A stretch of DNA of 64,000 nt, taken from assembly GCF_046119375.1 (NCBI RefSeq), contig NW_027362765.1, positions 440,076,001 to 440,140,000 of the forward strand. The letters run 5' to 3'. The DNA comes from Phyllobates terribilis. Its lineage: Eukaryota. Shown here in pieces: positions 2,301 to 53,451 of this stretch. Under the pieces are notes generated by a model. The model did no database searches. It had not been told where the DNA came from and saw only the letters and a list, made by a program, of their open reading frames with translations. The position numbers and the translations under genes are program-made. How positions within the stretch are numbered: the first letter of the stretch is position 1; each line of letters opens with the position of its first letter.

Positions 2301-3004
2301 CATATATTATGAGGCTAACAAAAATAGGATAATGTAAAAAGTGGATCTGTTGCATAACCGATGCAAACAAAAAGAGAGAAACCCCTTTGATTATTGTGGG
2401 ATCCGCTTTGGGTTAATTCTGCATCTTTTTTTAGAATGGAAGAAAAACTTCTGCAGGATGCACTTCTTCCACTTACAAAGGGAAAGTCATTATAGAAATG
2501 TGAATTTAGCCTTAATGTGATGTGTCAATAAAACAAGGTACAAATGTAACAAACTTACAACTTAAGATAATGCGATATATGTCATCAGAGCATTCATTCC
2601 GATATCCCTACCTTAACCATCAATTATTGGGTAGCTTGCAGTTTCTCTAGCTTTTACAAGATCTCTGCAGCCATTGAATAAGAAAATTGTTGAGGCTGAT
2701 ACCAAATGAAGGCCTCTATTCCATTTATTCTGCCATCTGTTTTTTTTCCCCTCTGTGTACCACAAAAATGCTGAAGTAAAAGAATTTGGGGAATGATTCC
2801 ATAGTTTTTTTTAATGAGATTCATCTTGCGTAACAGTTGTTGCAATGGACCCTTCGAGGAGGTAGATCCAAAATGTTCTCTCGTATACACAAGAACGCTC
2901 GGCTCAGACAAGCGCTCCTGTTTTCTCGTTGAGAGAGCCTCTGCCAGGCTCTTCTGGCAGAGGTTTATCTCAAAGCCGAACAAGAAGATTGGCCATTGGC
3001 CACC

Positions 3005-3473
3005 TCATGGGGTATCCTTGATCATGAGGAAGATGAGAGATCAGCCTAAAACTACACGGGGGGAACTTGTTAATGATCTCAAGGCAGCTGGGACCACAGT
3101 CACCAAGAAAACCATTGGTAACACATTATGCCTTAAAGGTTTAAAATCCTGCAGTGACTGTAAGGTCCCCCTGCTCAAGAAGGCACAAGTGCAGGTCCGT
3201 CTGAAGTTTGCCAATGAACACCTGGATGATTCTGTGAGTTATTGGGAGAAGGTGCTGTGGTCAGATGAGACAAAAATTGAGCTCTTTGGCATTAACTCAA
3301 CTCGCCGTGTTTGGAGGAAGAGAAATGCTGCCTATGACCCAAAGAACACCATCCCCACTGTCAAGCATGGAGGTGGAAACATTATACCTTTTAAATTATA
3401 GACTCGTCATGTCTTTGTCAGTGGGCAAACTTACAAAAACAGCAAGGGAACAAATAATTATTTCCTTCACTGT
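3005..3473 (+). mobile_element. Internally deleted Tc1 element (transposase fragment joined to right TIR)
   Basis: PKTTRGELVNDLKAAGTTVTKKTIGN...[16 protein letters not shown]...[10 protein letters not shown], then an abrupt join to a terminal repeat ending ...ttccttcactgTA. Confidence 0.85.
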
Positions 3474-8139: not shown

Positions 8140-9729
8140 TCAGCTGTATGTGCACTGATGCATGCCTGATTCATTTTGAAAAATGTAAGGTTTTTCACAC
8201 TAGTGGAGGACAATATGGTCCACTTGGGCGTGACATACTGAATACACTCTGACAGTACACTGGAGCCTGGATAAGAGCGTACACCCAAGGCAATCTGGGT
8301 CAGTTATTGCCACTGGTCCAATCTGCTAACTCAAAACTTCATGAAATTGAGGTTGGATAAAGGACACAATACAAGCATTGACTGAACCTGTCTGCTTAGG
8401 CAGTGCGTCTCTGTTTGCTAAAGTGCATCAGGTTGGCGCAGCAGCAGATAAAACATTTGGTCCATCATGTCATATATACTGTAATCGCTGCTGCCTTGGC
8501 TACTTGTTGTAGCCCTAATGTTGGCACAGATAGCGAAGCATTGGCTCTGAAAGGAACGGGCTCTACTGATCAGATGTCCAGCCATCAGGCATCGCCTCAG
8601 CAAAGCTTTGTTGAGAAGGGAATACAACTTATTCTGGTAATGCACCAATTTTGACTCTCTTTTGAAGCTGGAAAAAGATTGCAGATTTTGTTTTTATAAT
8701 GTGAGTCTAAAACATGGCTATCCAATAGTCATACCTTTGTTTGACGTTAACAATACAACTGTTATCCCACAATTAATTTAGCATACAGCATGCCTTGCTC
8801 ACACTTCACACTCACTGTCGGCCTCATTTCCTGCCTGTGCCCAGGATAACTCAATGTCTCCCTTTACATCCACCTACTGCTGCTACTTATCCTCCTACCA
8901 TCAATCTTCTTCCTGCTGCATGTAATATTGACCTTGAGGGCCTCCAACAGCCCAGTGTGGCGATGAGCAAAAACACTGAGGTAGGGGAGTTGATGCAATG
9001 GTTGCTATGTTGCTGCTGGGCATGGGATCATGTCTATTGAGAAGGATGCAACGGATGTGTATGAGTTGGAAGATAACCACAGTTTGTCAGTAGAACCAGA
9101 CCTAGCACCTAATGGTGGAGGCTTCACCACCTGTCTTGAGTACTGTGATGTATCGCTGATGTTCAAAACATTTACCCAATGAGTTGTGAAAGACATGCAC
9201 TGTTCATGGTCAAAGTTGCTACTCCATGTTTCTACAGTGCAGGGCACTTTCAAGCCTAATGCCAAGTCAAGAAAGCAGCCTATGTGCTCCTGCACATGAG
9301 AGCACAGAGCAGGCACCCCTTTCTGCAAGAAATAATGGCAGAGGGGTATCTTCCAGTGAGACTAAGTGCATGCCATGGTTTCTTGAAATGTAGCGGAATC
9401 CACTAAGTGGCAAGACTATGACTGCAACTTGACAAGGTGGGAATTGGGTTAGCTCTCAAGAAGATGACTGGGAGCGCATACCTGTTTCCTAGATACACAA
9501 TCAGGGATGGATATCTGGTGGTACGATGGAGAAGGAGGAAGATTTGGAATATAACAAGCAGTAGTCTGGATGACGATGATGGCACCAACGAGGTACTATT
9601 TTAGGATGCAATCTTTTTTACAAGAAAGATAGGCTAAGATGAAAGCTTGAGCAATGCTTATATTGCTGGCCAGCTTGGCTTTTCCAGTTGAACAGGTGAT
9701 GTTACTTGATGTGCTGATAGAGAGGCATC
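8140..9729 (-). pseudogene. hAT transposase remnants
   Basis: Broken frames give LVDSATFQETMAC..HWKIPLCHYF, ETWSSNFDHEQCMSFTTHWVN and a C-terminal dimerisation-like end ...LTFFKMNQACIS. Many stops and frameshifts. Confidence 0.75.
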
Positions 9730-10152
9730 TGTTATGATCTGCTACAAGCACTAAGGAAAGAAAGGAGATCTGTCCCTACAATAGAACTAAGCTAGATCCC
9801 TACGATGTAACGGGGAACTTGATCCTGCGATCAGACCCACTAAAGTCCTCGGCTAGTCTGTACGAAGACCTATAGATGCAAGGGAGGGATCTCTACAAGA
9901 ACTAGGGACTGGGATAAAGTTGGACACCTCCTAGCAGAAATTGTAGCAGTAAACGACAAACACACAACAAAGAACAGAAAGATCTGAAGACCTAGCTAAA
10001 CTGACTGAGAAAGGTAACTAAGCACCAGGCTAGCTAAAGAGTAGAAATTACAAAGAAGTCCAGCAAGGCCAGGAGGGCGGAGCAGGACTAAATAGGCAAA
10101 AAAGGTCATGTGACCAGCAAGATAGAAAAAAACTAACAGGAGAGTTCTAACA
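9730..10152 (-). repeat. 3' LTR of element A
   Basis: About 11 substitutions versus 19239-19661 by eye (about 2.6%). Confidence 0.95.
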
Positions 10153-10164
10153 GTACCCCCTCTT

Positions 10165-10876
10165 CTATGAGGATCCTCCGGATCCCCTAGGCCCAGGCTT
10201 ATCAGGAAACCTCTTGTGAAACGCTCTGACAAGTCTGGAAGCAGAAACATCATCCGCCCTCACCCATTCGTTATCCTCGGGTCCGAAACCCTTCCAAGCG
10301 ATGAGATACTGCAAACTCCCTCTATACCGTCTAGAATTTAGGATGCGAGAAATTTCGTATTCCCCGTCCTCCACCACCGGAGGAACAGTGGCAGAGGTGT
10401 CTCCATCCGACACATAAGCTCTTTTCAACAGAGAAACATGAAACATCGGATTAATCTTCCAGGAGGTAGGAACCTCCAACCTAACAGCAGATTGGTTAAC
10501 TACCTGAAGCACCTTAAAGGGCCCTACAAACTTGGGACCCAATTTTTTAGAAGGAATCCTCAACCGCAGATTCTTAGAGGACAACCAAACCATGTCACCA
10601 ATAGCAAACAAAACCTCTTGCCGTTTCCTATCAAAGTACCTCTTAGATTTTTTGTTAGCCTCCTGAAGATTACCACGCACATCCGTCCAAACTCTCTCCA
10701 AATCACCGGAAAAACTCTCCTCCTCAGGCACAGCCGATACCAATTTGGAGAATGACCCAAAAGACGGATGTCTCCCAGAACAACAAAAAAAAGGTGAACA
10801 ACCAGCAGAAGAGGATGTATGGTTGTTAAGAGCAAACTCAGCAAGTGGCAGAAACTCAGACCACCCCTCCTGATTG
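10165..10876 (-). pseudogene. pol: Element A pol 3' end: integrase C-terminus, GPY/F region and chromodomain
   Basis: QEGWSEFLPLAEFALNN...KLGPKFVGPF...YEISRILNSRRYRGSLQYLIAWKGFGPEDNEWV. It resumes the frame broken by X1. Confidence 0.92.
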
Positions 10877-12100
10877 TGTAGCACCCTGAGGATTCGGCTG
10901 CTACAGGGGTACTGCACCTCAACCAGAGGTGTGGTATTCCACTCCCGGGTAAGGATGGAGTGTGGATCTGAGCTCAGTAAGCTGCATGCACTACACACAT
11001 CCCATTTCCGAGGAACAGACCAACAGTACTCCCACTTAGAAATGTGCAGGTACGACCGAGTCTGTTCCTGGCTGGAGTGGGAGGGGGGTGGTACATCCCA
11101 GTAGTGTAGGGGCAGATAGGGGGAGCAGCCTGGGTAAAGATAGGAGCTCATTGGGTGCTGGTCACCTGAGCTCACACATAGAGGGAGTATTTAAGGTGGG
11201 CACCATCTAAGATCAGGGTCAGTCTGTGAGAGGTCAGTCAGTCAGGGTCAGTCTGTCAGTCTTTTGCAGAGCAGTGGAAGAAAGCAGAGGAGCAGAGCAG
11301 CCCCAGGCCCAGAGTGAGAGTGGAGCAAGAAAGACCCAGAGAGGGAGACAGAAGGAACTCTGAGAACCCACATACAAACACAGGGTGAAGAGTTGGCAAC
11401 AGGGTACCGGATCCCAAACTGGTGGGGGCTAAAGCATACCTCAGCCAGAGACCGGAGGCCGTGGGCAGGATCTGCCACGGCCACCCACCACATCCACCCT
11501 GAAGGCAAACCACGTGTAGGGTCAGGGAACCCAAGGCCAAGGGTCTCCCAACAGAAGGCCCGAGGGAGCTGGACCTAGGTGGATCCCTGGTGGGGACGGC
11601 CAGAAGAAAGGACAAGAAGGAGGGCTCAGGGACACGCTCCGGACTTGCTTGGGGGTTGGCTGAATCCAGGACCTGGTGGACGCAGCACGGCTCGGGTGGT
11701 CACTCAAGGCCGGAGTGACCGGAATATCTGCAGTAAGTAAACACCCTGAACTGCACAACCCGACTCTGTCTTTAATTATCATCTACGCTGCACCACCACA
11801 ACCCCCATCCTCTGCACCTGACCCCCTGAGGCCATACCCCTCCCGTTGGGGGTTATACTATCTAAAGCTGCACCAACACCATCAGCCTCAGCGGACCCTG
11901 CTGCAGCGGCGGCCGTAGTGACCGCAAATCAGCGGGTGGCGTAGTCGACACAAAAGAACATCTAGTAACATCATAAGGACTGCCACACACTGAGCTTGAC
12001 ACCCTGGGCACGGACCGGGTCACAGCCACTCGGAGACTACAACCCCCATCTGATCCGGCTCCGGGTATTCCCTAAAGAATATGGCCCAGGGGGCGCGTCA
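10877..12100 (+). repeat. 5' LTR of X1 (1224 bp)
   Basis: TATA-like TATTTAA at about 11188; AGTAAA poly(A)-like signal at about 11737; near-identical to 14605-15829. Confidence 0.95.
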
Positions 12101-14132
12101 ACTTTGGCGTAGTCGGCAGGATCTCGTGCCCGCAACACCCGGGTACTGCGTGCCTGAAGAAAAGAACAAGTTTACCTCAAAAAGAAGTCTCCTGCCGGTT
12201 CCGGAGGGTCCCCGCCATCGGACCCCATCACAGGTCGTTTCCCGCCGGTTGTCCGCCATTAACAGCTTTTTCCCGCCATCTGCAGAGTTTCCCGCCACTG
12301 GGAGACGATTCCCGCCATTTCCAAAGGTTTCCCGCCTTGGGGGAGCGGACGCCATTATGGGCGTGCCAGAGGGTGGCAAGAGGCCACCTCCCATCGTGGG
12401 CCAGGACCGAAAATGGCGCCAAAAGTGGAAACCGCCCCCACCAACAGAGACTGTGATGCTAGAGGTGTCTGTCAGCGTGAAAGAACTGCCCCTGGAGCTG
12501 ACAATCACCAAGTGGCCCCGGGACCGCCCTCGAAGTGGGAGGACTGAGAAGAAGAGAACAAAGATGGGTGTCGCCTGGAGCAGTCTGGAGAGAGCGCACC
12601 CGGAGACAAGAAGCCTAGAGCTGAGTCCAGAAGAAGCTTACCCGGAGATGGAAGAAGAGCAGAGCAGCACCGGCCCGCTGGCCAGGAGCCTGCTGGAGAC
12701 AACGGAAAGAGAGCAGAGCAGCACCGACCCGTTGGTCAGGAGCCTGCTAGAAGCAACGACCCCACTAGGCTTAGTGGAGGTCCTGGCACAGCTCCCCCGA
12801 GATCGGGAGTGTGCGCAGACTGCGCTGGAGGGCCTCGCACGGAGGATGGCCCGGGTGCAACGAGAGACATTGGCGGAGTGGAGCCGAGAGATGGCCCAGC
12901 GGACCGAGACTCGTCAGCGGAGCACGCCACCCGAGACGAGGAGACAGACCGCCTCTGAGGATGGCGCAGGAGGACTGAAGGCCGGAGACGGCGCCGAGAA
13001 GGGAGCCGAACGAAAGGAGGCAGGTAAAGGGGACGTTTCTACCCCAAACCGGGAAACCGCGTACCTGCCCCAGCTCCCCGTCGCAGAGCCCGAAGTACCC
13101 CCTGCCGTGCCCGTAACCGCAACGTCACTGCCACAGACTAGGCCTCAACCGGAAGCCGAAGCCGCGACCCCTGTGACGTCACACGCCTCGACCCCGAGCG
13201 TGACCAAGCAGGAAGTACCACCAGCCTGGTCGCAAGGCCTAGTACCCCCGGGCGCCGCAATACCAACAGCGCCCCCTACCTCCGCGGAGCCACCGGCCTG
13301 GTCGCAGGGCCAAGTAGCCCAGGGCGCCGCCGTCCTTACGGTGCCCTTCACTTTCCAGGTGCCCCAGGCCTGGCCGCAAGGCCTGGGCAACCCGGGCGCC
13401 ACCACCACCGCGCCCATAAAACCAAGAGTGCCGCATCTGGGAGAAGATCTGTTCGCCCAACACACATGGCCGGACGGGCAGCCCTTTGTGTGGCCCAGGG
13501 AGTACTACGAACAAGAGCTCCAAAAGAGGACAAGGCCCATGTGTGAGCCCCTGATCCCGGCTCCGAAGCCCGTAAAAAGGACCTCGCCCCCGCTAGAGGA
13601 GGCACAGTTTGAGTGGGACCCCACCGGAGAAGACCTCATGGGGTTCACTCAGGAGACTCGGGCAGCCGCAGCGGATCGTGCAGAGTGCTGCCGCCAGCAG
13701 CTCGAGGTCTTTGAGAGGGAGCAGAGAGAGAGGCGGGTCCGGGAACAACAAGCCCAAATAAAGAGCGCGGAGCAGAAGAGCCGGGCCAGGAGGAGTCCCC
13801 GTGCAGCTCATGGTCCCCCTTCCACCGGGACTGTGATCAAGTTTAATATGCAGCACGGGTGGGGCTTCATCCGAGATCACCGCACCCCAGGCGACGTCTT
13901 CGTGACAAGAAGAGACGTTGAGTCCCACCTACCGGAGGGACACAGAGGACGTGACCTGTATATAGGGGACGAGGTCACCTTCACCCGGCACAAGTGTGCC
14001 AAAGGACCCTACGCCCTCCATGTGCATCGCCTGACGGAGGAGGAGCTGCGGTGTGAAGAGGAGCAAGAGGACCCGGACGGGTCTGAAGCTAAAGTGAATC
14101 ACAAAGAAAGAGCAGGAGGACGTCGTCGTTGA
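12081..14132 (+). CDS. Cold-shock-domain protein encoded by X1 (683 aa from the first ATG; 591 aa from the better-context ATG at 12357)
   Basis: CSD at about 13824-14030: TGTVIKFNMQHGWGFI (RNP1-like), DVFVT (RNP2-like), LYIGDEVTF...KGPYALHV. It is preceded by Pro/Ala-rich repeats and a charged coiled-coil-like stretch, and followed by an acidic then basic tail. Confidence 0.85.
   Translation: MAQGARQLWRSRQDLVPATPGYCVPEEKNKFTSKRSLLPVPEGPRHRTPSQVVSRRLSAINSFFPPSAEFPATGRRFPPFPKVSRLGGADAIMGVPEGGKRPPPIVGQDRKWRQKWKPPPPTETVMLEVSVSVKELPLELTITKWPRDRPRSGRTEKKRTKMGVAWSSLERAHPETRSLELSPEEAYPEMEEEQSSTGPLARSLLETTEREQSSTDPLVRSLLEATTPLGLVEVLAQLPRDRECAQTALEGLARRMARVQRETLAEWSREMAQRTETRQRSTPPETRRQTASEDGAGGLKAGDGAEKGAERKEAGKGDVSTPNRETAYLPQLPVAEPEVPPAVPVTATSLPQTRPQPEAEAATPVTSHASTPSVTKQEVPPAWSQGLVPPGAAIPTAPPTSAEPPAWSQGQVAQGAAVLTVPFTFQVPQAWPQGLGNPGATTTAPIKPRVPHLGEDLFAQHTWPDGQPFVWPREYYEQELQKRTRPMCEPLIPAPKPVKRTSPPLEEAQFEWDPTGEDLMGFTQETRAAAADRAECCRQQLEVFEREQRERRVREQQAQIKSAEQKSRARRSPRAAHGPPSTGTVIKFNMQHGWGFIRDHRTPGDVFVTRRDVESHLPEGHRGRDLYIGDEVTFTRHKCAKGPYALHVHRLTEEELRCEEEQEDPDGSEAKVNHKERAGGRRR
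12105..12122 (+). promoter_or_regulatory. Primer-binding site for tRNA-Ser
   Basis: TGGCGTAGTCGGCAGGAT is the reverse complement of the vertebrate tRNA-Ser 3' end (...ATCCTGCCGACTACGCCA) and lies 4 nt after the LTR. Confidence 0.9.
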
Positions 14133-14604
14133 GTACAGCGGAGTAGAAGCTGTATATAGTTGCCCGTCGGGGCACAGTGAACCGTTGCTGCTAATATAGT
14201 CCCCGTTGGGACCAGAGAATTGAACTGTTACCCGTATTTCCCTTAATCCCACTGACCGAGGACTGAGAGCGGTCATCCCTTTCCTAAATATCTGGCCGAG
14301 GACTGAGAGCGGCCATATCCCTTTGTATATAGTTGCGCGTCCTAAAGCGCCCCCTACTGGTTTTACAGGAAAACCATTTTTCTAGAGAAACTGTTGCATT
14401 TTTCCCGGGCACACGTTGCACAGTGTCCGGAGGAGGAGCTAGAAGCGAGGAAAAGTCTACAAGAATGTTTTATATGAAAAGTTTTATTGATATATATATA
14501 TATAATGTTTTATATGATGTTTTATATGTTTATGCAAAAATTGTATGTTTGTGGTGTTTATTCTTTTACAGCCCGAGGACGTGCTGTGATTTACCAGGGG
14601 GGAA

Positions 14605-15829
14605 TGTAGCACCCTGAGGATTCGGCTGCTACAGGGGTATTGCACCTCAACCAGAGGTGTGGTATTCCACTCCCGGGTAAGGATGGAGTGTGGATCTGAG
14701 CTCAGTAAGCTGCATGCACTACACACATCCCATTTCCGAGGAACAGACCAACAGTACTCCCACTTAGAAATGTGCAGGTACGACCGAGTCTGTTCCTGGC
14801 TGGAGTGGGAGGGGGGTGGTACATCCCAGTAGTGTAGGGGCAGATAGGGGGAGCAGCCTGGGTAAAGATAGGAGCTCATTGGGTGCTGGTCACCTGAGCT
14901 CACACATAGAGGGAGTATTTAAGGTGGGCACCATCTAAGATCAGGGTCAGTCTGTGAGAGGTCAGTCAGTCAGGGTCAGTCTGTCAGTCTTTTGCAGAGC
15001 AGTGGAAGAAAGCAGAGGAGCAGAGCAGCCCCAGGCCCAGAGTGAGAGTGGAGCAAGAAAGACCCAGAGAGGGAGACAGAAGGAACTCTGAGAACCCACA
15101 TACAAACACAGGGTGAAGAGTTGGCAACAGGGTACCGGATCCCAAACTGGTGGGGGCTAAAGCATACCTCAGCCAGAGACCGGAGGCCGTGGGCAGGATC
15201 TGCCACGGCCACCCACCACATCCACCCTGAAGGCAAACCACGTGTAGGGTCAGGGAACCCAAGGCCAAGGGTCTCCCAACAGAAGGCCCGAGGGAGCTGG
15301 ACCTAGGTGGATCCCTGGTGGGGACGGCCAGAAGAAAGGACAAGAAGGAGGGCTCAGGGACACGCTCCGGACTTGCTTGGGGGTTGGCTGAATCCAGGAC
15401 CTGGTGGACGCAGCACGGCTCGGGTGGTCACTCAAGGCCGGAGTGACCGGAATATCTGCAGTAAGTAAACACCCTGAACTGCACAACCCGACTCTGTCTT
15501 TAATTATCATCTACGCTGCACCACCACAACCCCCATCCTCTGCACCTGACCCCCTGAGGCCATACCCCTCCCGTTGGGGGTTATACTATCTAAAGCTGCA
15601 CCAACACCATCAGCCTCAGCGGACCCTGCTGCAGCGGCGGCCGTAGTGACCGCAAATCAACGGGTGGCGTAGTCGACACAAAAGAACATCTAGTAACATC
15701 ATAAGGACTGCCACACACTGAGCTTGACACCCTGGGCACGGACCGGGTCACAGCCACTCGGAGACTACAACCCCCATCTGATCCGGCTCCGGGTATTCCC
15801 CTAAAGAATATGGCCCAGGGGGCGCGTCA
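14605..15829 (+). repeat. 3' LTR of X1
   Basis: Direct repeat of 10877-12100, preceded by the PPT. Confidence 0.95.
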
Positions 15830-15833
15830 ATTG

Positions 15834-18295
15834 TCTGCCACAAAACAACGCAAGAACTGCTCAACATCCTGATTCTTCCTTTCTGTCTGGCCATTAGACT
15901 CAGGATGATATCCGGATGAAAACGACAAATGAACTCCCAACCTGTCACAAAAAGCACGCCAAAAACGAGCCACGAACTGAGGTCCCCTATCCGAAACAAT
16001 GTCAGTAGGAACGCCATGTAGTCTGACAATTTCCTTGACAAAGGCCTTAGCGAGTGTCTTAGCGCAGGGCAGTTTGATGAAAGGAACCAAGTGACACATC
16101 TTGCTAAAACGGTCCACGACCACCCAGATGACCGTGAAACCCTCAGAGGGGGGAAGGTCAGTAATAAAGTCCACAGCCAGATATGTCCAAGGTGCACTAG
16201 GAACCTCCAGAGGGCAAAGCAACCCCGCTGCAGGAGTATGTGAAGACTTAGATCTAGCACACACCGTACATTGATGCACCCACTTAATGACTTCCTTCTG
16301 CCATCCAGGCTACCAAAAACTGCGACCCACAAGTCTCTTGGTCTCAGAAATTCCTGGATGACCTGCCAACCGAGACTCATGACACTCGACAAACAAATCT
16401 CTCCTAAAGGTCCTAGGCACAAACAACCTCCCATGGGGAGTGTTAGATGGGGCATTCTCCTCTGCTTTAAGAATCTCATCTTCCAAAATGGAGTCCAAAG
16501 CAGCAATCACAACACCTTCTTGTAAAATGCTCCCCTCCTCCTCAGCACCGACCATGGGAGAAAAGCTGCGAGACAAAGCATCAGCTTTAACATTCTTGGT
16601 ACCCGGGATGTAAGTAACGGAAAAATTAAACTGCGAGAAAAAAAGTGCCCACCTAGCCTGACGGGCATTCAAGCGCTTGGCAGCATCAAGATAGATCAGA
16701 TTTTTATGATCAGTGAAAACCTGAATGGGAAATTCAGCACCTTCCAAGAGATGACGCCAATGTTCAAATGCGAGTTTAATAGCCAGCAATTCCCGATTAC
16801 CAATATCGTAATTAAGTTCAGTCTCAGAAATTTTTTTTTAAAAAAAAGCACAGGGATGTACTCCATCCTTGTTTTTCTGAGACAACACCGCACCGACCCC
16901 CACCGAAGAAGCATCAACCTCAACCAAAAACGGCTTAGTCACATCAGGCTGCATAAGGATGGGAGCAGAGCTGAACCTCTCCTTTAGAAACACAAAAGCT
17001 TCAATGGCCTCAGTAGTCCACTGAACCGTATTAGCACCTTTCCTGGTGAGATCGGTCAGTGGTTTGACAATAATAGAAAATTTTTTAATGAATTTTCTGT
17101 AATAATTGGCGAAACCCAAAAACCTCTGTATCGATTTCAAATCAATAGGCCTAGGCCATTCCAGCACAGCTTGAACTTTCACCGGGTCCATCTCAAAGCC
17201 CTCGCTGGAGATAATGTAGCCCAAAAAACTAATTCTCTGTACAGCGAACTCACATTTCTCCAGCTTAGCAAAAAGCGAATTGTCAATTAATAACTGTAAT
17301 ACCTCACGTACGCTCCGCCAATGAGACTCCAGATCCGGTGAATAAATCAAAATGTCATCCAAATACACAACCACATTTTTGCCGATCAAAGGTCTAAGGA
17401 TGTCATTAATAAGATTCTGAAAAAATGCTGGAGCATTGGTAAGACCAAAAAGCATAACCAGATTCTCAAAATGACCCACAGGAGTGTTAAAAGCAGTCTT
17501 CCATTCATCACCCTCCTTCATGCCCAACAAATTGTATGCCCCCCGGAGATCAATTTTAGAGAACAACTTGGCCCCCACTAACTGGTTAAACAAATCAGGA
17601 ATCAATGGCAGTGGGTAAGGATTGCGTACAGTAATTTTATTAATCTCACGAAAATCCAGACAAGGCCGTAAACCGCCGCCCTTTTTTTTAACAAAAAAAT
17701 ATCCAACAGCCACAGGAGACTTGGAAGGCCTAATGTGACCGGCGGCCAAGCTTGTCTGTATGTATTCCTCCAAAGCCTTTCTCTCAGGAATAGTAAGATT
17801 AAATAAACCACTTTTAGGAAGAGTCGCTCCAGGGAAAAATTCAATGGTACAATCATAGTCTATATGGGGAGGCAAAATTTGTGACTCCTCCTCAGAAAAA
17901 ACTCTCCAAAAATCCTGAATAGGTACAGGTAATTCCTCTTTTTCCACCGCAGCAATACGTCCGTTACAACACTTGTCATAACACTTAGGGCTCCAGGACT
18001 TAATTTCATTAGTAGACCAATCCAGTACAGGATTGTGCAATTTTAACCAGGGCAACCCCAAAACTACTGGAGAAGGCAAATTATTTAATACTACCAAATC
18101 CAAATTTTCTTGGTGAATACCATTAATAGTGAGGGGAAATTCACAGACCTTGTGAGTAACACTCTTCAAGGGAGAGCCATCGACAGAAACCACAGCAATA
18201 GGGGATGACAAAGGTTTGGGTTTTAATTTAAGTTTTTCCAAGAATCCCCCATCAATCACATTCAGAGTAGAACCACAATCCACAAATACTCAAAA
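15834..18295 (-). pseudogene. pol: Element A pol (PR-RT-RH-IN core) with stops and frameshifts
   Basis: Protease VFVDCGS; RT VVVYLDDIL; RNase H VEVDASSVGVGAVL and DHKNL; integrase VDFITDL...VVVDRFSK...SDRGPQF...NGQTERKNQ. Split over ORFs 16838-18283, 16310-16789 and 15827-16279. Confidence 0.95.
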
Positions 18296-18301
18296 TTCAA
18301 T

Positions 18302-19189
18302 TCATTTTTCCTGAGCAGCAGTAGTAGCAGAAAGAAATACACCCTTAGTGTTTAAACAGGCTATACGGGCATAACTGACCTTTTTTTTTTCTTTGTTCAT
18401 ACGAAGCACACAGTTCTTAATAAAATGGTCAGATTTCCTGCAATAAAAGCACAAACCTTCAGAAGACCTGTGGTCTTTTTCCTGAGAGCGGGGTACCATC
18501 GCCCCAATCTCCATCGGCTCTCCAATGTCAGAACAGACCCTCTCAAGACTCGGAGCTGACATGGCAGAGGATTTACTCTCATTAACCCTTGCACGCAGTC
18601 TCCTGTCCACCCGTATAGCTAATTGAATTGCCTCCTGCAAGTTTCCAGGTGTGGGATAAGCAATCAGCAAATCCTTAACCCTTTCACCTAGCCCCGCAAG
18701 AAACAAACTTTTCAAAGCTGAATCGTTCCACCCCACCTGGGCAGACCACCGACGGAAGTGAGAACAATATTTTTCCACATTACCTGATCCCTGACTCAAA
18801 AGTCTCAATTCAGTCTCAGCTGATGAGACACGATCAAGATCATCATACAACAAACCCAAAGCAGAAAAAAAACTATCCACTGATCTAAAGCATGGATCAC
18901 TAGGTTGGAGAGAAAAGGCCCATCCCTGAGGTTCTTTGCGCAAAAGTGACATTATGAACCCTATGCGCTGTGATTCATCACCAGAGGATCTGGGTCTGAA
19001 ACGAAAATGCAACAAACAAGCATTTTCAAAGGAAAAAAATTCTTGTTGATCACCAAAAAATAAATCAGGCAAACGTACCTTTGGCTCCACAAAATGTGCT
19101 CCAGAACAGCTACTCACGTGTTGTTGGAGCTCGGCCACCTCCAGAGAGAGTCCCTGCAGGCGTTGAGCCAAATCCTGAAACGACACCAT
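18302..19189 (-). CDS. gag: Element A Gag (PEG10/sushi-like) with CCHC knuckle
   Basis: EPKVRLPDLFFGD...LSQGSGNVEKYCSHF...CFYCRKSDHFIKNC. Confidence 0.9.
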   Translation of the reverse strand: MVSFQDLAQRLQGLSLEVAELQQHVSSCSGAHFVEPKVRLPDLFFGDQQEFFSFENACLLHFRFRPRSSGDESQRIGFIMSLLRKEPQGWAFSLQPSDPCFRSVDSFFSALGLLYDDLDRVSSAETELRLLSQGSGNVEKYCSHFRRWSAQVGWNDSALKSLFLAGLGERVKDLLIAYPTPGNLQEAIQLAIRVDRRLRARVNESKSSAMSAPSLERVCSDIGEPMEIGAMVPRSQEKDHRSSEGLCFYCRKSDHFIKNCVLRMNKEKKKVSYARIACLNTKGVFLSATTAAQEK

Positions 19190-19238
19190 AATGGAAACTG
19201 GAAGTCTTTCCTTAGAGATATTTTTGGGCTGGACTTAC

Positions 19239-19661
19239 TGTTATGATCTGCTACAAGCACTAAGGAAAGAAAGGAGATCTGTCCCTACAATAGAACTAAG
19301 CTAGATCCCTACGATGTAACGGGGAACCAGATCCTGCGATCAGACCCGCTAAAGTCATCGGCTAGTCTGTACGAAGACCTATAGATGCAAAGGAGGGATC
19401 CCTACAAGAACTAGGGACTGGGATAAAGTTGGACACCTCCTAGCAGAAATTGTAGCAGTAAACGACAAACACACAACATAGAACAGAAAGATCCGAAGAC
19501 CTAGCTAAACTGACTGAGAAAGGTAACTAATCACCAGGCTAGCTAAAGAGTAGAAATTACAATGAAGTCCAGCAAGGCCAGGAGGGCGGAGCAGGACTAA
19601 ATAGGCAAAAAAGGTCATGTGACCAGCAAGATAGAAAAAACCTAACAGGAGAGTTCTAACA
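19239..19661 (-). repeat. 5' LTR of element A
   Basis: Direct repeat of 9730-10152, followed by TSD GCATC. Confidence 0.95.
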
Positions 19662-21607
19662 GCATCGTCCCATTCACTGCTTATTTTCCTCTTGCAGAGC
19701 CTGAACACTGCAAAAAATTTGTAGGTCTGCAGCATAGAAAAGAATTCCCACACCCAAGATGCCTATACTTAAGACTTGCCACCACCACAATGACACCAAG
19801 AGCTTTCAGGCACTGTTGAACCTCTGCTCCACCTTAATCACCTGCTCCAAAACTGACTGCGGAAGAAGCAGATCTACTGGCTGAATGTCAGCTCTTTATG
19901 GCTGAAGGCAACACCCTCCTCCTCTGATGACCTCTCCTACTCGTCATCCCCAAAAAAAGATCATAGGTCTTTTCCTTCACACCACCATCATCATCCTTAA
20001 CTTTGCTAACAGTTGCCTCAATGTGGGAAATGTCCTAAGATCCTTGCCTCCCGCCTCTAGATTGGCCACATCTAAAGCCATGTGAGCCTTCGGCCTTTGG
20101 TGGCTGATGTATCTTCTGTAATGTGTAAAATGGTGGTGGCACAAATTATTTAATTTCAGAGGTATTGTGGGATTTCTACTCAATTGAGTGCGATGGGAGG
20201 CAAAACAGGAAGCGCTTCCATTTAAAGGTCCATTCTGGTTTATTGTGGTGTCATAAACCAGCCATAAGCAAAGGAAAATAAATGGCCTTAGTTCAGGAAA
20301 ACAAACTAATCAGTTTGTTTTGAAAAGTCTCTTGAGAGCCTGTCCTGGTCACACAGGCTGGATAGTATCCAGTACACCGGTTCAGTTTGAAGATAACATG
20401 CAGGAGGACCTCTTCCTCCTCACATAGAGACCATGTGCCAAATAACGGCCTCCATTTTAACTTGTTAACCACACCTAGAGGTGAGGTATGTGGCCAGCCA
20501 GACCTGTCCATCTCTCTGGCTACCCGTAAAACCTGGCCCAGATGCACCAAACAATCCTCTTAGTATTTATGTGTAGAGTAATGTAGAGTAATATTCCAGG
20601 ATTATATCACAGATAACAACCATCTCTGTGATACATACCTCCCATCAACTCTGTGTCCTTGAGATACCTTACAGTACCTAAAACTTTCATGAATTTCTGT
20701 TATGATCTGCAACATGTACTAAGGAAAGATAGGGGAAAGCTGTCCCTACAGTAAGACTAAGCTGAATCCCTACAATGTAGCGGGCTGCCTGTTCCTAGTG
20801 AACAGACCCGCCTTAGTCCTCAGCTAGTCTGAACGAAGACATATAGAATTAAAGGAGGGGTCCCTAAAAGCACTAAGGACTGGGACAAAAATGGGACACC
20901 TCCTAAACAGAGAAGTTGTTGCAGAACACAAAAAGACAAACTGACAAAAATGTACTAGAGGTCCCAGAGGACCAAGCGAACTTGACAGAGAAAGCACCAG
21001 GCTAGAGAAACAGTCAAACACTGAAGTCCAGCACAGCCACAAGGGCGGAGCTGGAATATAAAGGCAGATGGTCACGTGACCGCAAAACACAAGATAGAAA
21101 AAACAAACAGGAGGGTTCTAACAGTACCCTCTCTTTTATGAGGATCCTCCGGATCCTCCAGGCCCAGGCCTATCCGGAAACCTCCTGTGGAAAGCTTTAA
21201 CAAGCTTAGGAGCAGAGACATCATCCGTCCTTACCCAGGAGTTGTCTCCGGGACCGAAACCCTTCCAGGAGACAAGATACTGTAATCTCCCTCTATGCCA
21301 TCTAGAATTCAAGATACGAGAAATTTCATATTTGCCGTCTTCCACAACAGGAGGAACTGTGACAGTAGCGACCCTATCAGATACATCAGCCTTTTTCAAC
21401 AAGGAAACATTAAACACAGGATTAATCTTCCAGGAAGTAGGGACATCCAACCTAACAGCAGATGGGTTAACAACCTGAAGCCCTTTAAATGGACCCACAA
21501 ACTTAGGACCCAGTTTTTTAGAGAGATTTTCTGGGGACTAGGACCTGGCATTACCTCATTGAGCCTGCACCTCAGTCTCTTGTCTATACGAACAGCTAAC
21601 TGCATAG

Positions 21608-24600
21608 TGATGCGCCCCCTGGGCCATGTTGTGCAGCGTTGCGCATGCGGGGAATACCCGGAGCCGGATCTGATAGGGGTAGTAGTCCTCGTGGCGGTGA
21701 CCCAGTCCGTGCCCAGGGTGTCAAACCAAGTGGCAGAACTTAGAGTAAGATGTTATATTGTTCGACTACGCCACCCGTTGATTGCGGCTATGAAGCCGCC
21801 GCTGCAGGGCAGACCGCTGAGGCCGGTGGTACGGGTGTGCAGCGTGGATAGTATAACCCCCAACGGGAGGGGTATGGCCCCAGGGCAGCAGGCGAAGAGG
21901 GGATGATGGTAGTGATGTTATAGTAGTCCCCGTCCTAATAGTGCTAATGCGACAAGGAATCAGTGAGACGTACAGCTGCAGTTTTCAATGCTTTACTCAC
22001 AGTTCTTTATCAGGTCCCTTGTGCGCAGTCAAGACCGCCCGAGTCATGCTGCGTCCACCAGGTCAGGGACTCAGCCAACTCCCAGGCAATTCCAGAGCGT
22101 GGTCCAGAGCTCCCCTCTCTTCCTTCCTACTGGCCGTCCCCACCAGGGACCCACCTTTGTCCGGCTCCCTCGGGCCTTTTGGTGGCGAAGCCTTTCCCGG
22201 TTTCCCTGACCCTATACGGTATGCCTTCCTGGTGGATATGGTGAGGGGTCGCGCCAAGACTTGACCACGACCTCCGGTTCCTGGCTAAGGATAATTGGCC
22301 TCCACCAGTTTGGGATCCGGTACCCTGTTCTGCCAACCCTTCACCCGTTATTCCGTGGGATCTTAGGGTTCCCTCTTTTCTTGCGTCTCTGGGCCTTTCC
22401 TGGTGTTTATGTTCCTTCTTCCTCTTACTTCTCTCTCTCTCTCTGCTTCAGGCCTCCACTTCAGGCCTGGCTCTGGAGCTGGGCCCGGACTGAGCCACAG
22501 CTCCCTGTCAGCCCTCTCTGGCTGAACTCTCTCAGACTGCACTCCTCTGCACCTCCTCTGCACCTCCTCCCCGTTCTATCATGGTGCCCACCTTTTATAC
22601 TCCCTTCTGACACCCGAGCCCAGGTGACCAGCACCCAATGGGCTCCTACCTATGCCCAGAGTCCCTCCCCTGTCTGCTCCTACACCACTGGGATATTCCT
22701 CCCCCCTCCCCACTCCAGCCAGGGACAGACGCTGTCGTACCTGCACATCTATCTGGTGGGAGTACCGTTGATCTGTCCCCCGGAAATGGGGTGAGTGTAG
22801 TGTATGCAGCTAACTGAGCCCCGTTCCACACTCCATCCTTACCCGGGAGTGGAATACCGCACCTCTGGTTCGAGGTGCAATACCCCTGCAGCAGCCGAGT
22901 CCTCGGGGTGCTACATTCCCCCCTGGTAAATCACAGCACGTCCTCGGGCTGGAATAGAATAAAAACATTTTAAACATACAAATATTTTTAAAGTGCACTC
23001 GCATATAAGACATTAACTATGAACTCATCCCCTTTATGAGAGGTACTCTTTTCTTCTTAACGTTACTGGCATAAAACATTTTTAAAACATTCTACTAATG
23101 CCACCGGAACTCTTTTGTAAAACACTATATAAAACTTTTGGCATTATCATTTTAGCAGCATATTAAACTTTCCATTATAAGACATTTTTTTTACACAAAC
23201 ATTTTCAACACATATGCTTGAGCTCCGGCCACTGTGCAACTTGCGACCAGGTAAAGTGCAACAGACACTACTTCCAAGGTAGAAAGGCAGTTCTTATAAA
23301 ACCAATAGGGGGCGCTTTAAGAAACGCAACTATGTACAAGGGTATGGCCGCTCTCAGTCCTCGGCCAGTGGGAATAGGGGAATGGCTGCTCACAGTCCTC
23401 AGCCTGGTTAGGGATTAGGGGCACACAGGTAACAGTTCTTTAACAGTTCCATACTAGTCCCAACGGGGACCACACTTCAATCAGCAAGAGTCCTTGTACC
23501 CCGACGGGTAACTATATACAGTTCCACTTTACCATTCTCTAATAATGGTGTCCTCCTTGTTCTTCCGGGTAGTCTTCAGGTCTGTTCGGACCCTCGATGT
23601 ACTCTGTTTCTTGGTGGTACTGTAGCTCCTCCTCCGTGAGCCTGTGAACGTGGAGGGTGTATGGTCCTTTGGCACCCTTGTGCTGGGTGAAGGTGACCAC
23701 ATCACCCGGGTAGAGATCACGTCCGTGGTGTCCCTCCGGCAGGTGGCTGTGGCAGTGAAGCTCTCCTCTGTATCCGACATCCTCCTCCCCCTAGTGGACC
23801 GTGGCCTACCTTGCGATGATCCTCTTCCGTAGGCCGCGGCTCCGCAGTGGATCGTCAGGGTTGAGGACCTTCCGTCGCGCTCCTGTGACGTCGGCGTCTG
23901 CTGGGCTCCTTCCAGGACCTTACGCAACGTCCGGACGTGAGGCGGAGCTTCAGTTCTCGGGCGCTTTCGGAGTCCACGCCCCTCTTCTTCCCGCGCGGCG
24001 TCCTCAAGATGGCGTCCAATGGCGGGAAAACTCCACGGATGGCGGGAAGAAGGCAGAAGATGGCGTCGGATGGCGGGAAAACTCCACGGATGGCGGGAAT
24101 CCTCTGGAATTGGCGGGAGACTTCTTTTTGAGGTACATGTGAACTTTTCTTCAGGCACGCAGTACCCGGTGGTTGCGGGCACGAGATCCTGGGCCCCCTG
24201 GGCCTGTGCTGCTGCTGCTGTGCAGGGGGAATACCCGGAGCCGGATCTGATAGGGGTAGTAGTCCTCGTGGCGGTGACCCGGTCCGTGCCCAGGGTGTCA
24301 AACCAAGTGGCAGAACTTAGAGTAAGATGTTATATTGTTCGACTACGCCACCCGTTGATTGCGGCTATGAAGCCGCCGCTGCAGGGCAGACCGCTGAGGC
24401 CGGTGGTACGGGTGTGCAGCGTGGATAGTATAACCCCCAACGGGAGGGGTATGGCCCCAGGGCAGCAGGCGAAGAGGGGATGATGGTAGTGATGTTATAG
24501 TAGTCCCCGTCCTAATAGTGCTAATGTGACAAGGAATCAGTGAGACGTACAGCTGCAGTTTTCAATGCTTTACTCACAGTTCTTTATCAGGTCCCTTGTG

Positions 24601-25492
24601 CGCAGTCAAGACCGCCCGAGTCAGGCTGCGTCCACCAGGTCAGGGACTCGGCCAACTCCCAGGCAATTCCAGAGCGTGGTCCAGAGCTCCCCTCTCTTCC
24701 TTCCTACTGGCCGTCCCCACCAGGGACCCACCTTTGTCCGGCTCCCTCGGGCCTTTTGGTGGCGAAGCCTTTCCCGGTTTCCCTGACCCTATACGGTATG
24801 CCTTCCTGGTGGATATGGTGAGGGGTCGCGCCAAGACTTGACCACGACCTCCGGTTCCTGGCTAAGGATAATTGGCCTCCACCAGTTTGGGATCCGGTAC
24901 CCTGTTCTGCCAACCCTTCACCCGTTATTCCGTGGGATCTTAGGGTTCCCTCTTTTCTTGCGTCTCTGGGCCTTTCCTGGTGTTTATGTTCCTTCTTCCT
25001 CTTACTTCTCTCTCTCTCTCTGCTTCAGGCCTCCACTTCAGGCCTGGCTCTGGAGCTGGGCCCGGACTGAGCCACAGCTCCCTGTCAGCCCTCTCTGGCT
25101 GAACTCTCTCAGACTGCACTCCTCTGCACCTCCTCTGCACCTCCTCCCCATTCTATCATGGTGCCCACCTTTTATACTCCCTTCTGACACCCGAGCCCAG
25201 GTGACCAGCACCCAATGGGCTCCTACCTATGCCCAGAGTCCCTCCCCTGTCTGCTCCTACACCACTGGGATATTCCTCCCCCCTCCCCACTCCAGCCAGG
25301 GACAGACGCTGTCGTACCTGCACATCTATCTGGTGGGAGTACCGTTGATCTGTCCCCCGGAAATGGGGTGAGTGTAGTGTATGCAGCTAACTGAGCCCCG
25401 TTCCACACTCCATCCTTACCCGGGAGTGGAATACCGCACCTCTGGTTCGAGGTGCAATACCCCTGCAGCAGCCGAGTCCTCGGGGTGCTACA
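21608..25492 (-). mobile_element. Element X2: non-autonomous relative of X1, with a gag start fused to the 3' half of the CSD gene
   Basis: LTRs 21608-22915 and about 24191-25492; flanking duplication CATAG; PPT complement TTCCCCCCT after 22915; 3' UTR homologous to X1; PBS largely deleted at about 24190. Confidence 0.92.
23539..23748 (-). pseudogene. C-terminal half of the CSD protein in X2 (69 aa plus stop), out of frame with the upstream gag ATG at 23780
   Basis: SHLPEGHHGRDLYPGDVVTFTQHKGAKGPYTLHVHRLTEEEL is 36/42 identical to the X1 protein. Confidence 0.9.
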
Positions 25493-27390
25493 CATAGCAT
25501 CCTGCAGAGTCTCAGGTGCAGGGAATGCAATTAGCAGATCCTTAACCCTTTCACTCAGACCAGCAAGAAATAAACATCTCAGCGCAGGATCATTCCACTT
25601 AACTTCTGAAGCCCATCTCCTGAAGTGTGTGCAATCATATAATAGCCCCATAGCAGAAAAAAATTCTTCAACAGACCTTAAACACAGATCATTAGGTTGG
25701 AGATAAAAGGCCCACCCCTGTGGTTCGTTGCGCAAAAGTGACATAATAAAACCAATGCGCTGTGATTCATTCCGAGAGGACCTTGGTCTCAAACGAAAAT
25801 ATAACAAACAAGCATTTTTAAAGGAAAAAAAATCTTGCTGTTTACCAGAAAAAACATCAGGCAGTCCTACCTTGGGTTCGACAAAATGAGCTCCAGAACA
25901 GCTACTCACGTGTTGCTGAAGCTCGGCCACCTCCAGAGACAATCCCTGCAGGCGTTGAGCCAAATCCTGGATGGAAACCATACTGATCCCCGAATTTCTT
26001 TCCTTTTCGTTTTTTTGGGCTGGACTTACTGTTATGATCTGCAACATGTACTAAGGAAAGATAGGGGAAAGCTGTCCCTACAGTAAGACTAAGCTGAATC
26101 CCTACGAGGTAGCGGGCTGCCTGTTCCTAGTGAACAGACCCGCCTTAGTCCTCGGCTAGTCTGAACGAAGACCTATAGAATTAAAGGAGGGATCCCTAAA
26201 AGAACTAAGGACTGGGACAAAAATGGGACACCTCCTAAACAGAGAAGTTGTTGCAGAACACAAAAAGACAAACTGACAAAAATGTACTAGAGGTCCCAGA
26301 GGACCAAGTGAACTTGACAGAGAAAGGCACCGAAGCACCAGGCTAGAGAAACAGTCAAACACTGAAGTCCAGCACAGCCACAAGGACGGAGCTGGAATAT
26401 AAAGGCAGATGGTCACGTGATCGCAAAACACAAGATAGAAAAAACTAACAGGAGGGTTCTAACAATTTTGACATGAATTCAATTCACATCAAATCAATTT
26501 GCTTATCTCAACATTGAACAAAATCATGATACTAAGTATTAACAAGTCATCACTCTGCAAATATACAATAAACAGGCAATTAGATTAGCATATGACATAA
26601 TAAATATAGAAATGAAATTTAGAAGATTTTGCTAATACAACTTTTACTTCTGATTAAAAAAAATAATTTAGGGAAAAGGCCTTTTAATTTTACAGCACAA
26701 TACTTAGAATCTATTGGTTCTTTTGTACTTTGCTGAAGACCATCAGAAATAGTTTAAAACGTCCTTAAGAGAATTGGGCACTGGGCTGCAATATACATAT
26801 TATTTAATAATAAGACTATGCTCCCAGTGTGTCACTTGTATTTATGCATAGAGAGTTGTAATAGGAATATGCTGATATCACTGGGTCTTCCTCCAGCCAG
26901 AAAGGGGAAGGTTGTGTCAGGGCAGCCAAAAGCTGAGCCAGCTTTCCTCTTTAACTTTGCACTAATAGTTGTGATCTAGCTGTCATGTCAGGTTGTATTA
27001 AAACTATACTACAATTTTCTTTTTTGCTGTAATGCCAAAGAAATGTGGGGCATGTTATTGATGTAACACGCCACATGTCCATACGGCGAAACAAATATAA
27101 CAGAATGGTTCTGAAATGGTTTTAGAACGAATTTAGCCAGGAATGTTGCCAAACTCTACTTTCTGCCAATTCTGCTATACGGATGTCAAATTTTCGTTAA
27201 TTGGCATGCCGGACCATAAATAAAATAGATTTTTTCAGATGTTTTTTATACCATGTTAGATTTCACAAAATGTTCTGAAACACTTTTTGGCAGTACAAGG
27301 CCAATAGTTATGATTCACATTATGTTTTCTCAATAATTTCTGGATTTACTCTATTTCTGAAGTTACTCCTCTTTAACCATACCTCAATAT

Positions 27391-38938: not shown

Positions 38939-38988
38939 GATCGCTCAGAGAGGTCGTCCTAGACAAGAATAAACCCTCTCCATCTCTG

Positions 38989-46313: not shown

Positions 46314-46365
<52 letters not shown>

Positions 46366-53433: not shown

Positions 53434-53451
53434 ATCCTGCCGACTACGCCA
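53434..53451 (-). promoter_or_regulatory. tRNA-Ser primer-binding site of C
   Basis: The plus strand reads ATCCTGCCGACTACGCCA, identical to the tRNA-Ser 3' end. Confidence 0.92.

Follow-up and report, generated by a model that had tools for sequence, protein, structure and literature searches.

A non-autonomous Ty3/Gypsy-type LTR element of poison frogs whose only gene encodes a cold-shock-domain protein

Introduction

Why would an LTR retroelement with neither gag nor pol carry, as its only gene, one for a protein ending in a cold-shock domain (CSD)? The question is raised by an element in a 64,000-nt stretch of the Phyllobates terribilis genome (hereafter the window, whose positions are used throughout). 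Non-autonomous LTR elements generally count as hitch-hikers that code for nothing; in this case a host-type RNA-binding protein is kept on a dependent element, and a literature search, which covered mainly listings and abstracts with most subscription journals lying outside it, found no relevant paper. The explanation that we favor, on balance and with some reserve, is that the element is a non-autonomous Ty3/Gypsy LTR satellite with a single CSD gene, which is likely copied by helpers with a PNMA-like gag and whose protein likely binds its own RNA, aiding the survival or packaging of the latter.

Anatomy of the element

The window contains an intact LTR element at 10877-15829 (4953 nt), nested in the integrase region of an older chromovirus:

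9729-19662, minus strand: older chromovirus hosting the element (LTRs differ at 11/425 positions)
10873-10876, no strand: left target-site duplication (TSD), ATTG
10877-12100, plus strand: 5' LTR, 1224 nt, TG...CA ends
12081-14132, plus strand: single ORF from the first ATG, 683 aa
12105-12122, plus strand: primer-binding site (PBS), 18 nt, complementary to the 3' 18 nt of tRNA-Ser
14133-14595, plus strand: 3' untranslated region, non-coding
14596-14604, plus strand: polypurine tract (PPT), AGGGGGGAA
14605-15829, plus strand: 3' LTR, 1225 nt, TG...CA ends
15830-15833, no strand: right TSD, ATTG

The first-pass annotation had described near-identical 1.2-kb LTRs, a 4-bp TSD, a tRNA-Ser PBS and a PPT, and coordinates and alignment bear out each of these. 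The two LTRs are separated by two substitutions and one indel, and the insertion is recent. The PBS starts four bases past the end of the 5' LTR and is complementary to the 3' end of a tRNA-Ser(TGA), encoded in the same genome, with CCA added. With paired TG...CA LTRs, a short TSD, a tRNA PBS and a PPT, no reverse transcriptase (RT), RNase H, integrase or protease, and a partner with common cis signals (see below), the element belongs with the non-autonomous Ty3/Gypsy LTR retrotransposons. The 5' LTR contains a TATA-like box at 11188 and AGTAAA at 11736, and the stretch 11188-12080 is free of ATGs (9.6 expected; 12 on the opposite strand). Between the ORF and the PPT (14133-14595), omega is 0.95-1.34 in all three frames and most indels are not multiples of 3. 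No Rfam families were found in the window; leader repeats CCCGCCAT in the element are a candidate RNA motif for the CSD protein. All 30 bins of the element are covered by contigs from four runs whose type is unrecorded or guessed, a coverage that cannot show transcription.

A single ORF with a cold-shock domain

A single stop-to-stop frame of 692 codons (12054-14132) opens inside the 5' LTR. Its first ATG, at 12081, precedes the PBS and is a candidate start only, with further in-frame ATGs at 12357, 12456, 12564 and 12648. The intronless ORF comprises conserved helices and a Pro-rich linker before the CSD, and a short basic C-terminal tail after it:

12735-12908, plus strand: conserved segment in the N-terminal part, residues 228-285; omega about 0.25; looks helical and matches no family
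13599-13808, plus strand: conserved, charged residues 516-585 ahead of the CSD (omega about 0.10); a long helix is predicted
13824-14039, plus strand: cold-shock domain (omega about 0.08), with a Y-box-like loop length

That one 2-kb ORF ends in a CSD, with no gag or pol in the element, had been proposed from the letters alone, and both parts of the proposal stand: the sole Pfam match of the ORF is the CSD family PF00313 (residues 591-658, nt 13824-14027; E = 5.3e-8, 33.1 bits vs a curated cut-off of 27), and the Pfam search found no gag, protease, RT, RNase H or integrase family in it. Over residues 10-586 the best match reaches only E = 0.043, and blastp against the helper Gag gives a best E of 0.37, so that any gag homology of the N-terminal part would have to be very remote.

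An alignment-based model of the CSD (pLDDT 81) predicts the five-stranded OB fold of the family, with a Foldseek match to CspA at E = 9e-7 (TM 0.88 by target); the top rows of a VIA search with this model are all cold-shock domains (Z 8.6-10.1). It supersedes an earlier, weak single-sequence fold (pLDDT 66.5, no Foldseek E below 0.001). In the ESM Atlas, the C-terminal part matched only generic cold-shock clusters under 0.9 and the N-terminal part gave no usable match, and homodimer prediction for the helix plus CSD scored 0.02.

Purifying selection on the ORF

Shared synonymous and non-synonymous variants (S:N) were counted over 30 copies plus the window copy, with one divergent copy left out. 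The CSD (75:15, omega 0.08) and the helix before it (residues 516-585; 67:19, omega 0.10) are under strong amino-acid constraint, followed by residues 228-285 (45:26, omega 0.25), whereas residues 18-175 evolve almost freely (35:72, omega about 0.8); selection acts only from about residue 228 on. The contrast between CSD and leader is pronounced (P = 5e-13), the other reading frames across the CSD give an omega of about 3, and shared differ from singleton variants (P = 0.005). Indels are in-frame in 23/29 cases in the ORF vs 41/145 in the 3' UTR (P = 7e-7). For comparison, helper pol yields 146:32 (omega 0.08) and helper gag 90:53 (omega 0.23). A second CSD family with unrelated LTRs (14 sequences) repeats the pattern in its CSD (48:12, omega 0.10), and none of its 12 junction elements is autonomous. 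The CSD profile and fold matches on which the initial reading depended are both there; the domain is real and under strong purifying selection.

Copy number and population structure

A CSD protein search of the same genome returned 37,153 first-look candidates, with all 150 that were scored being 100% identical over the 78-aa CSD; a PF00313 search returned 33,380, and exact LTR-PBS junctions number 35,093 genome-wide (control 0). Twenty copies sharing the identical CSD were fetched, and each has an LTR pair and a PBS with no gag or pol inside; the ORF is far from confined to this locus. Among copies chosen by CSD score, 9/28 of which the pattern did not score, a perfect 4-bp TSD flanks 16 of the 19 scorable ones, with a median LTR divergence of 0.16%.

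A sample drawn without regard to content (the first 60 junctions listed, 59 usable, all within the initial 16 Mb of a single chromosome) comprises 31 full CSD elements, 21 gag-pol elements, five deleted satellites and two others, which extrapolates to about 18,400 CSD elements (95% 14,000-22,700). The CSD-less satellites (5/36 sampled) have five different breakpoints with the deletions clustered in one region, and all are singletons in the sample, 36 being too few to exclude amplified CSD-less subfamilies. By ORF coordinates, one open frame spans the N-terminal segment, the CSD and everything between them in 27/31 full-CSD copies; counts by regex (22/31) and alignment (19/30) are too low because of motif and gap artefacts.

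A helper element and helper-satellite chimeras

The window also contains an autonomous Ty3/Gypsy element of helper type (element C) and two chimeras:

46365-54491, minus strand: element C, same PBS as the satellite, no CSD
11794-12165, plus strand: region common to satellite and element C (76% identity), spanning the 3' part of the LTR, the PBS and the start of the leader
21608-25492, minus strand: chimera B, with the 5' part of a satellite-type LTR, then a leader and the beginning of gag of helper type (91% to helper)
57570-61060, minus strand: chimera D, with helper LTR, leader and 5' part of gag (96% to helper)

Element C encodes a PNMA-like Gag with a zinc knuckle (one CCHC knuckle, of weak score) and a pol of PR-RT-RH-IN order, frameshifted within RT in this copy. 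The common region likely contains the cis signals for priming and packaging. Chimera B continues into the 3' half of the CSD and the 3' UTR (82% to satellite), and chimera D into the tail of the satellite ORF and part of the 3' UTR (82-83%), followed by a helper-type 3' end. In both, identity switches from helper to satellite within a few bases, and their presence points to co-packaging. The 76% identity, the same PBS, the C-type helpers making up 21/59 junction elements and the two chimeras lend support to the earlier suggestion that a C-like helper mobilizes the satellite; element C and these 21 elements are the putative autonomous partners as judged from sequence.

The CSD was found in none of eight helpers followed to the 3' LTR, and the gene itself is absent from all nine examined. 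A native gag-pol-CSD architecture, suggested by one locus, was rejected as the general pattern: none of nine close relatives has pol within 1.5 kb upstream, and the join falls inside the integrase C-terminus, with no CSD in the eight helpers.

Relatives and origin of the CSD

Searched against the PDB, the family profile scores best with YB-1/YBX2 (57-58 bits, without gaps), followed by bacterial Csp (up to 41.5 bits), Lin28 (23) and CARHSP1 (22.5), a 16-bit margin for YBX to be read alongside differing structure ranks and a tree lacking an intact YBX. In the structure searches, Foldseek ranks bacterial Csp and VIA ranks CARHSP1 on top, without singling out Y-box proteins. Named homologues come only from poison frogs of three genera. 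As potential donors, host CSDE1 retrocopies and a single-copy, decayed YBX pseudogene were rejected as falling outside the element group in the tree, and a low-copy CSD cluster because it is nested within that group.

In YB-1, W65 and H87 contact nucleic acid (PMC7498358). In all 31 aligned copies their equivalents are K and T, respectively, while those of F74, F85 and K118 are retained and Y72 is replaced by W; the domain thus departs from Y-box proteins, with their near-invariant CSD bearing W65, F74, F85 and H87, and canonical nucleic-acid binding is not assured. Clade I has additional invariant residues (R619, R620, H630, R633 and Y653), and across 22 divergent sequences F40, G47 and G94 never vary and the RNP1 Phe hardly does. 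The loss of two canonical stacking residues, and the presence of this domain in several unrelated LTR families, had been overlooked by the first-pass annotation.

Discussion

We propose a transcription start close to the TATA-like box at 11188, which would make the first ATG of the genomic RNA that of the ORF; the ORF would then be translated from this RNA in the position that gag occupies in the helper. The helper Gag-Pol would package the satellite RNA and prime on tRNA-Ser, with the satellite protein acting preferentially in cis and the conserved helices perhaps serving self-association or contact with the helper Gag. A Y-box (YBX) mRNA would have been the source of the domain, with capture predating the dendrobatid/aromobatid split and the binding surface altered since. 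Action in cis is invoked because a diffusible benefit would let broken copies multiply equally, eroding constraint among amplified variants. The roles first suggested for the protein (packaging, stabilization, annealing, storage and counter-silencing) are all candidates, and the selection pattern favors a cis benefit. A kin-structured benefit, in which close relatives of the satellite within one cell profit from its protein, might likewise keep the ORF without strict cis action.

Action in trans strikes us as rather unlikely. The protein would here mimic a Y-box protein or suppress silencing in oocytes, hiding retroelement RNA from decay or the piRNA pathway to the equal benefit of helpers and satellites, with the satellite as a mutualist of the helper family. 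The Y-box-like profile, the youth and abundance of helpers and satellites alike, the abundance of Gypsy RNA reported from ova of the poison frog Oophaga pumilio (PMC6278860) and the proposal of such roles for retroelement accessory proteins elsewhere (PMC6338049) are consistent with this, but a public good is hard to hold at an omega of 0.08 over many lineages, 0/9 helpers examined have the gene, and the deleted satellites sampled are all singletons. It is quite improbable that the altered CSD is mainly a protein-binding or parasitic module, e.g., one that binds the helper Gag or a host RNP factor and diverts particles, with RNA binding in a lesser role: the retention of the F74, F85 and K118 equivalents, an aromatic replacement at Y72 and the conservation of F40, G47, G94 and, nearly, the RNP1 Phe across divergent sequences argue against it, even if the lost W65 and H87 equivalents, the extra invariant residues of clade I and the equally strong constraint on the adjoining helix would suit such a role.

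As CSDs bind single-stranded DNA besides RNA (PMC7498358), the domain might alternatively be a nucleic-acid chaperone in the particle or pre-integration complex, acting in primer annealing, strand transfer or single-stranded DNA binding and supplementing the helper zinc knuckle. The single weak CCHC knuckle of the helper Gag and the basic tail of the satellite protein fit this, but we give it a small chance: without gag homology (best blastp E 0.37) the protein has no evident route into the particle, and helpers replicate without encoding a CSD. Hardly credible, finally, is a neutral passenger, in which the ORF, whether a piece of a captured gene or a frame open by chance in GC-rich sequence, would simply have been copied along with a non-coding satellite. 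Neutral evolution is indeed seen over residues 18-175, but two independent families each show purifying selection specific to this frame, indels tend to preserve it and 27/31 copies have it intact, which already contradicts this reading.

Returning to the proposed cis action, a constraint equal to that on reverse transcriptase implies a selected, element-encoded step, either in competing for the machinery of the helper or in the survival of RNA in the germline. The element also lets one test how a gene can be retained by selection where cheaters easily arise, and provides a natural Y-box domain variant whose binding face has changed. Some 18,000 full copies at 4.9 kb each would amount to roughly 90 Mb, about 1% of the 10.6-Gb genome. 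Pol-based counts have been used to tie Ty3 activity to frog genome size (PMC12822217), and CSD satellites are invisible to such counts; one poison-frog study gives 62.6% of repeat reads as unclassified (PMC12208295). The broader picture, to which we assign even chances, is of an old, diversified class of poison-frog satellites with a captured and retooled Y-box CSD as sole gene, acting in cis for packaging or germline RNA survival, outnumbering their helpers, riding on at least three unrelated LTR backbones and adding measurably to genome gigantism.

Comparison with known systems

One published rule defines LARDs as non-autonomous LTR elements above 2 kb without a retrotransposon domain (PMC6022998). 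At 4953 nt and with no such domain the satellite falls within it, and resembles LARDs and TRIMs in having LTRs, PBS, PPT and TSD with no gag or pol domain. LARDs are further defined by an internal region without a functional protein gene; the satellite ORF is under purifying selection, and, unlike in LARDs and TRIMs, described as lacking coding domains, its gene is constrained as strongly as pol. The plant TR-GAG elements and the mammalian MaLRs are likewise non-autonomous LTR elements with one retained ORF in the gag position. The satellite ORF differs in ending in a host-type cold-shock domain and in not being gag-derived, as judged from the absence of gag Pfam families and the above blastp result, any gag homology of the N-terminal part being at most very remote.

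Accessory ORFs of autonomous LTR retrotransposons are described for Cer1 (CERV; PMC10309623) and bdelloid elements (DEDDy/GDSL ORF3; PMC5408684), and an m6A demethylase ORF for an orchid LTR element (PMC9289625). These too are extra non-gag/pol genes acting, or proposed to act, on element RNA, but there the gene rides with gag-pol, whereas the satellite is a separate, dependent element and its helpers lack the gene.

The satellite CSD shares its fold with YBX1 and YBX2/FRGY2, its best profile matches, and aligns with them over 71-75 columns without a gap, even across the longer beta3-beta4 loop. It differs from them in being only about 31-35% identical, in the replaced W65 and H87, in its lack of introns and its other flanks, and in being multicopy and mobile. 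Hepatitis delta virus and phage P4 are satellite agents with a nucleic-acid-binding protein of their own that borrow a helper particle. Unrelated to them in sequence, and an endogenous LTR retroelement, the frog satellite offers a functional parallel by analogy only, in that it, too, would combine cis signals and one protein of its own with borrowed replication or packaging.

Anatomy of the element and its relatives in the window

The LTR element at 10877-15829 (+), hereafter the satellite, lies inserted in an older chromovirus, whose integrase it splits. The LTR pair, TSD, PBS and PPT read in the first-pass annotation were all located, and its cold-shock domain (CSD) is recovered by Pfam as the only match in the sole long frame.

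Features of the satellite and related elements
10877-12100 and 14605-15829 (+): LTRs, differing by 2 substitutions and 1 indel
ATTG: TSD
12105-12122 (+): PBS
14596-14604 (+): PPT
12054-14132 (+): sole long frame; its CSD (residues 591-658) scores above the curated cut-off
46365-54491 (-): element C, with a PNMA-like gag that includes a zinc knuckle, and pol arranged PR-RT-RH-IN
21608-25492 (-): B, helper-satellite chimera
57570-61060 (-): D, helper-satellite chimera

A tRNA-Ser(TGA) gene in this genome (L190) has a 3' end that fits the PBS. The same tRNA search found, elsewhere in the genome, several LTR ends next to which a longer stretch of the tRNA-Ser 3' half, CCA included, has been copied (L101-L104, L188, L189), in one case as far as the anticodon loop; these are a direct trace of the tRNA-Ser primer, by primer read-through during reverse transcription. 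A second PBS-like 11-mer lies inside the LTR (11937-11947 and 15665-15675), occurs also in B, C and D, and is conserved in helper and satellite. The leader (~12200-12400) carries a repeated CCCGCCAT motif common to element C, a candidate packaging signal. Also nested in the window are a chromovirus with gag-pol (36957-43086, +), a chromovirus derivative containing B (20698-26464, -) and Tc1-like transposase fragments (56641-57642, + and 2805-3401, +).

An abundant family and its probable helper

Querying the 10.57-Gb Phyllobates terribilis genome with the CSD protein gave 37,153 first-look candidates, which is not a copy number; the 150 that were scored all encode the identical CSD. The expected LTR-flanked relatives exist: 20 of 20 fetched copies with an identical CSD have an LTR pair and PBS with no gag or pol inside. 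Of 19 copies scorable for TSDs, 16 have a perfect 4-bp one, and median LTR divergence is 0.16%. To avoid picking copies by their CSD, we sampled by the exact LTR-PBS junction (35,093 genome-wide; control 0). The first 60 listed (59 usable) comprised 31 elements with full CSD, 21 with gag-pol of element C type, 5 deleted satellites and 2 others, which scales, from one chromosome end, to ~18,400 CSD elements (14,000-22,700) versus ~12,500 helpers. Internal identity of the 31 CSD copies to the window copy spans 71-94%, meaning that numerous lineages are active in parallel. Head-to-tail tandem arrays of CSD satellites with common LTRs (period ~3.6-3.8 kb) occur at G000:C3:186266881-186278451, C1:797277042-797284664, L068 and L177.

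The proposal of a C-like helper is supported by those 21 junction elements and by 76% identity between satellite and element C over the LTR 3' part, PBS and leader start. Vertebrate Metaviridae are known to include elements with a PNMA-type gag (PMC10516033). No CSD was found inside element C or in any of 8 further helpers traced to the 3' LTR, the one CSD match near a helper belonging to a neighboring element outside its LTR. In chimera B, internal bases 1-448 are 91% identical to the helper and 442-1274 are 82% identical to the satellite; in chimera D the helper part (1-733) stands at 96% and the satellite part (728-1039) at 82-83%. Switches of this kind are the known product of template switching between co-packaged RNAs, and we infer this origin for B and D.

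Selection on the ORF

In 30 sampled copies and the window copy, single-base codon variants were scored relative to the most frequent codon of each column; shared variants (in at least two copies) are types rather than events, and the copies are kin, hence P values from codon counts and indels are indicative only. Shared variants in the CSD are 75 synonymous to 15 non-synonymous (omega 0.08), with corresponding counts of 67:19 for residues 516-585, 49:35 for 456-515, 45:26 for 228-285, 70:97 for the Pro-rich linker and 35:72 for residues 18-175. For comparison, omega is ~3 in the other two CSD frames, ~1 in the 3' UTR, 0.08 in helper pol and 0.23 in helper gag. Singletons are nearer neutral than shared variants, as expected after insertion, and 23 of 29 ORF indels are in-frame versus 41 of 145 in the 3' UTR. 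Because no ATG lies in the LTR from the TATA-like box to 12080 (9.6 expected), and the helper likewise lacks any ahead of gag, the ORF appears to come first among the frames of the genomic RNA, in the place of gag. Across 30 copies the ATG at 12081 is present in 20, that at 12357 in 27, and those at 12456 and 12564 in all.

Further CSD elements

Family 2 combines unrelated 1.03-kb LTRs with the window element's PBS and a CSD ~30-40% identical (538 junctions); 12 of 12 sampled are non-autonomous and 10 of 12 have the CSD. Shared variants in the family 2 CSD stand at 48:12 (omega 0.10). Family 3 (L181) has 0.6-kb LTRs, a different PBS and older copies. At L185 (G000:C3:193023500-193032000) a broken pol of another Gypsy lineage is joined directly to a CSD frame of family 3; this is likely a helper-satellite recombinant and points to that family's helper. 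Many near-identical broken family-3 copies are concentrated on unplaced contigs (e.g., C84, C94, C139, C286), which suggests amplification inside a larger repeat. Additional CSD types are present at L061/L064, L176 and L182-L184; the PBS of L061 and L064 is unlike the window element's and presumably matches another tRNA-Ser isoacceptor.

A tree of 22 element CSDs and 12 others sets the elements on one side of a branch at 90/96, a separation that is not starred; they show a deep split at 100/100. Nested within the element group are three intronless CSD frames in a tandem cluster of low copy number (L041/L165, L166; G000:C4:791.48-791.52 Mb), which keeps the RNP2 His, has one copy with stops, and shows no LTR pair in 10 kb. 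L165 and L166 differ by 10 synonymous and 20 non-synonymous changes, with 9 multi-hit codons in 110; the cluster may be a domesticated or decaying copy. Host-type relics comprise a partly duplicated intronless CSDE1 retrocopy (L031-L036, G000:C1:734.43-734.45 Mb) and a decayed Y-box-like pseudogene (L051, G000:C11:349.41 Mb). The named homologs found are gene models from Phyllobates, Ranitomeya and Anomaloglossus, in keeping with a poison-frog host; since repeat-masked annotation conceals such ORFs and the two latest searches were confined to 8,000 scored candidates, other animals may have them too. Several of the models are chimeric with host or other transposon genes.

A probably retooled Y-box domain and its possible role

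The alignment-based structure prediction matches cold-shock domains (pLDDT 81), agreeing with the fold anticipated earlier. Y-box proteins rank first with the family profile from the narrower alignment (50 bits versus 45 for CspA) and with that from the broader one (58 versus 41.5, gapless), their lead thus widening as the alignment broadens. Of the YB-1 nucleic-acid contacts given in PMC7498358, the satellite CSD has equivalents of F74, F85, N67 and K118; Y72 is replaced by W, W65 by K and H87 by T, the last two replacements being invariant in 31 copies. As the W65 and H87 equivalents are replaced though other contacts are kept, the domain has likely been retooled from a Y-box domain and is not a plain copy, and m5C reading via W65 would not be expected of it.

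We propose that the protein made from satellite genomic RNA binds that same RNA, and would then shield it or carry it to helper Gag. Such a benefit in cis would be the simplest account of the strong constraint on the sole gene of a dependent element. The protein may instead act in trans as a Y-box mimic in the oocyte, may have a protein-binding role, or may serve as a chaperone inside the particle. The five CSD-less satellites, few as they are, have breakpoints that differ in each, in line with their being dead ends.

Among the papers searched, we found no description of a CSD in an LTR retrotransposon, and a Repbase/Dfam consensus may exist; the word 'cold' is absent from the main text of PMC13524379, PMC6278860, PMC12208295 and PMC5408684. 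The satellite with a CSD as sole cargo is real: a non-autonomous LTR element whose cargo, probably host-derived, is under selection.
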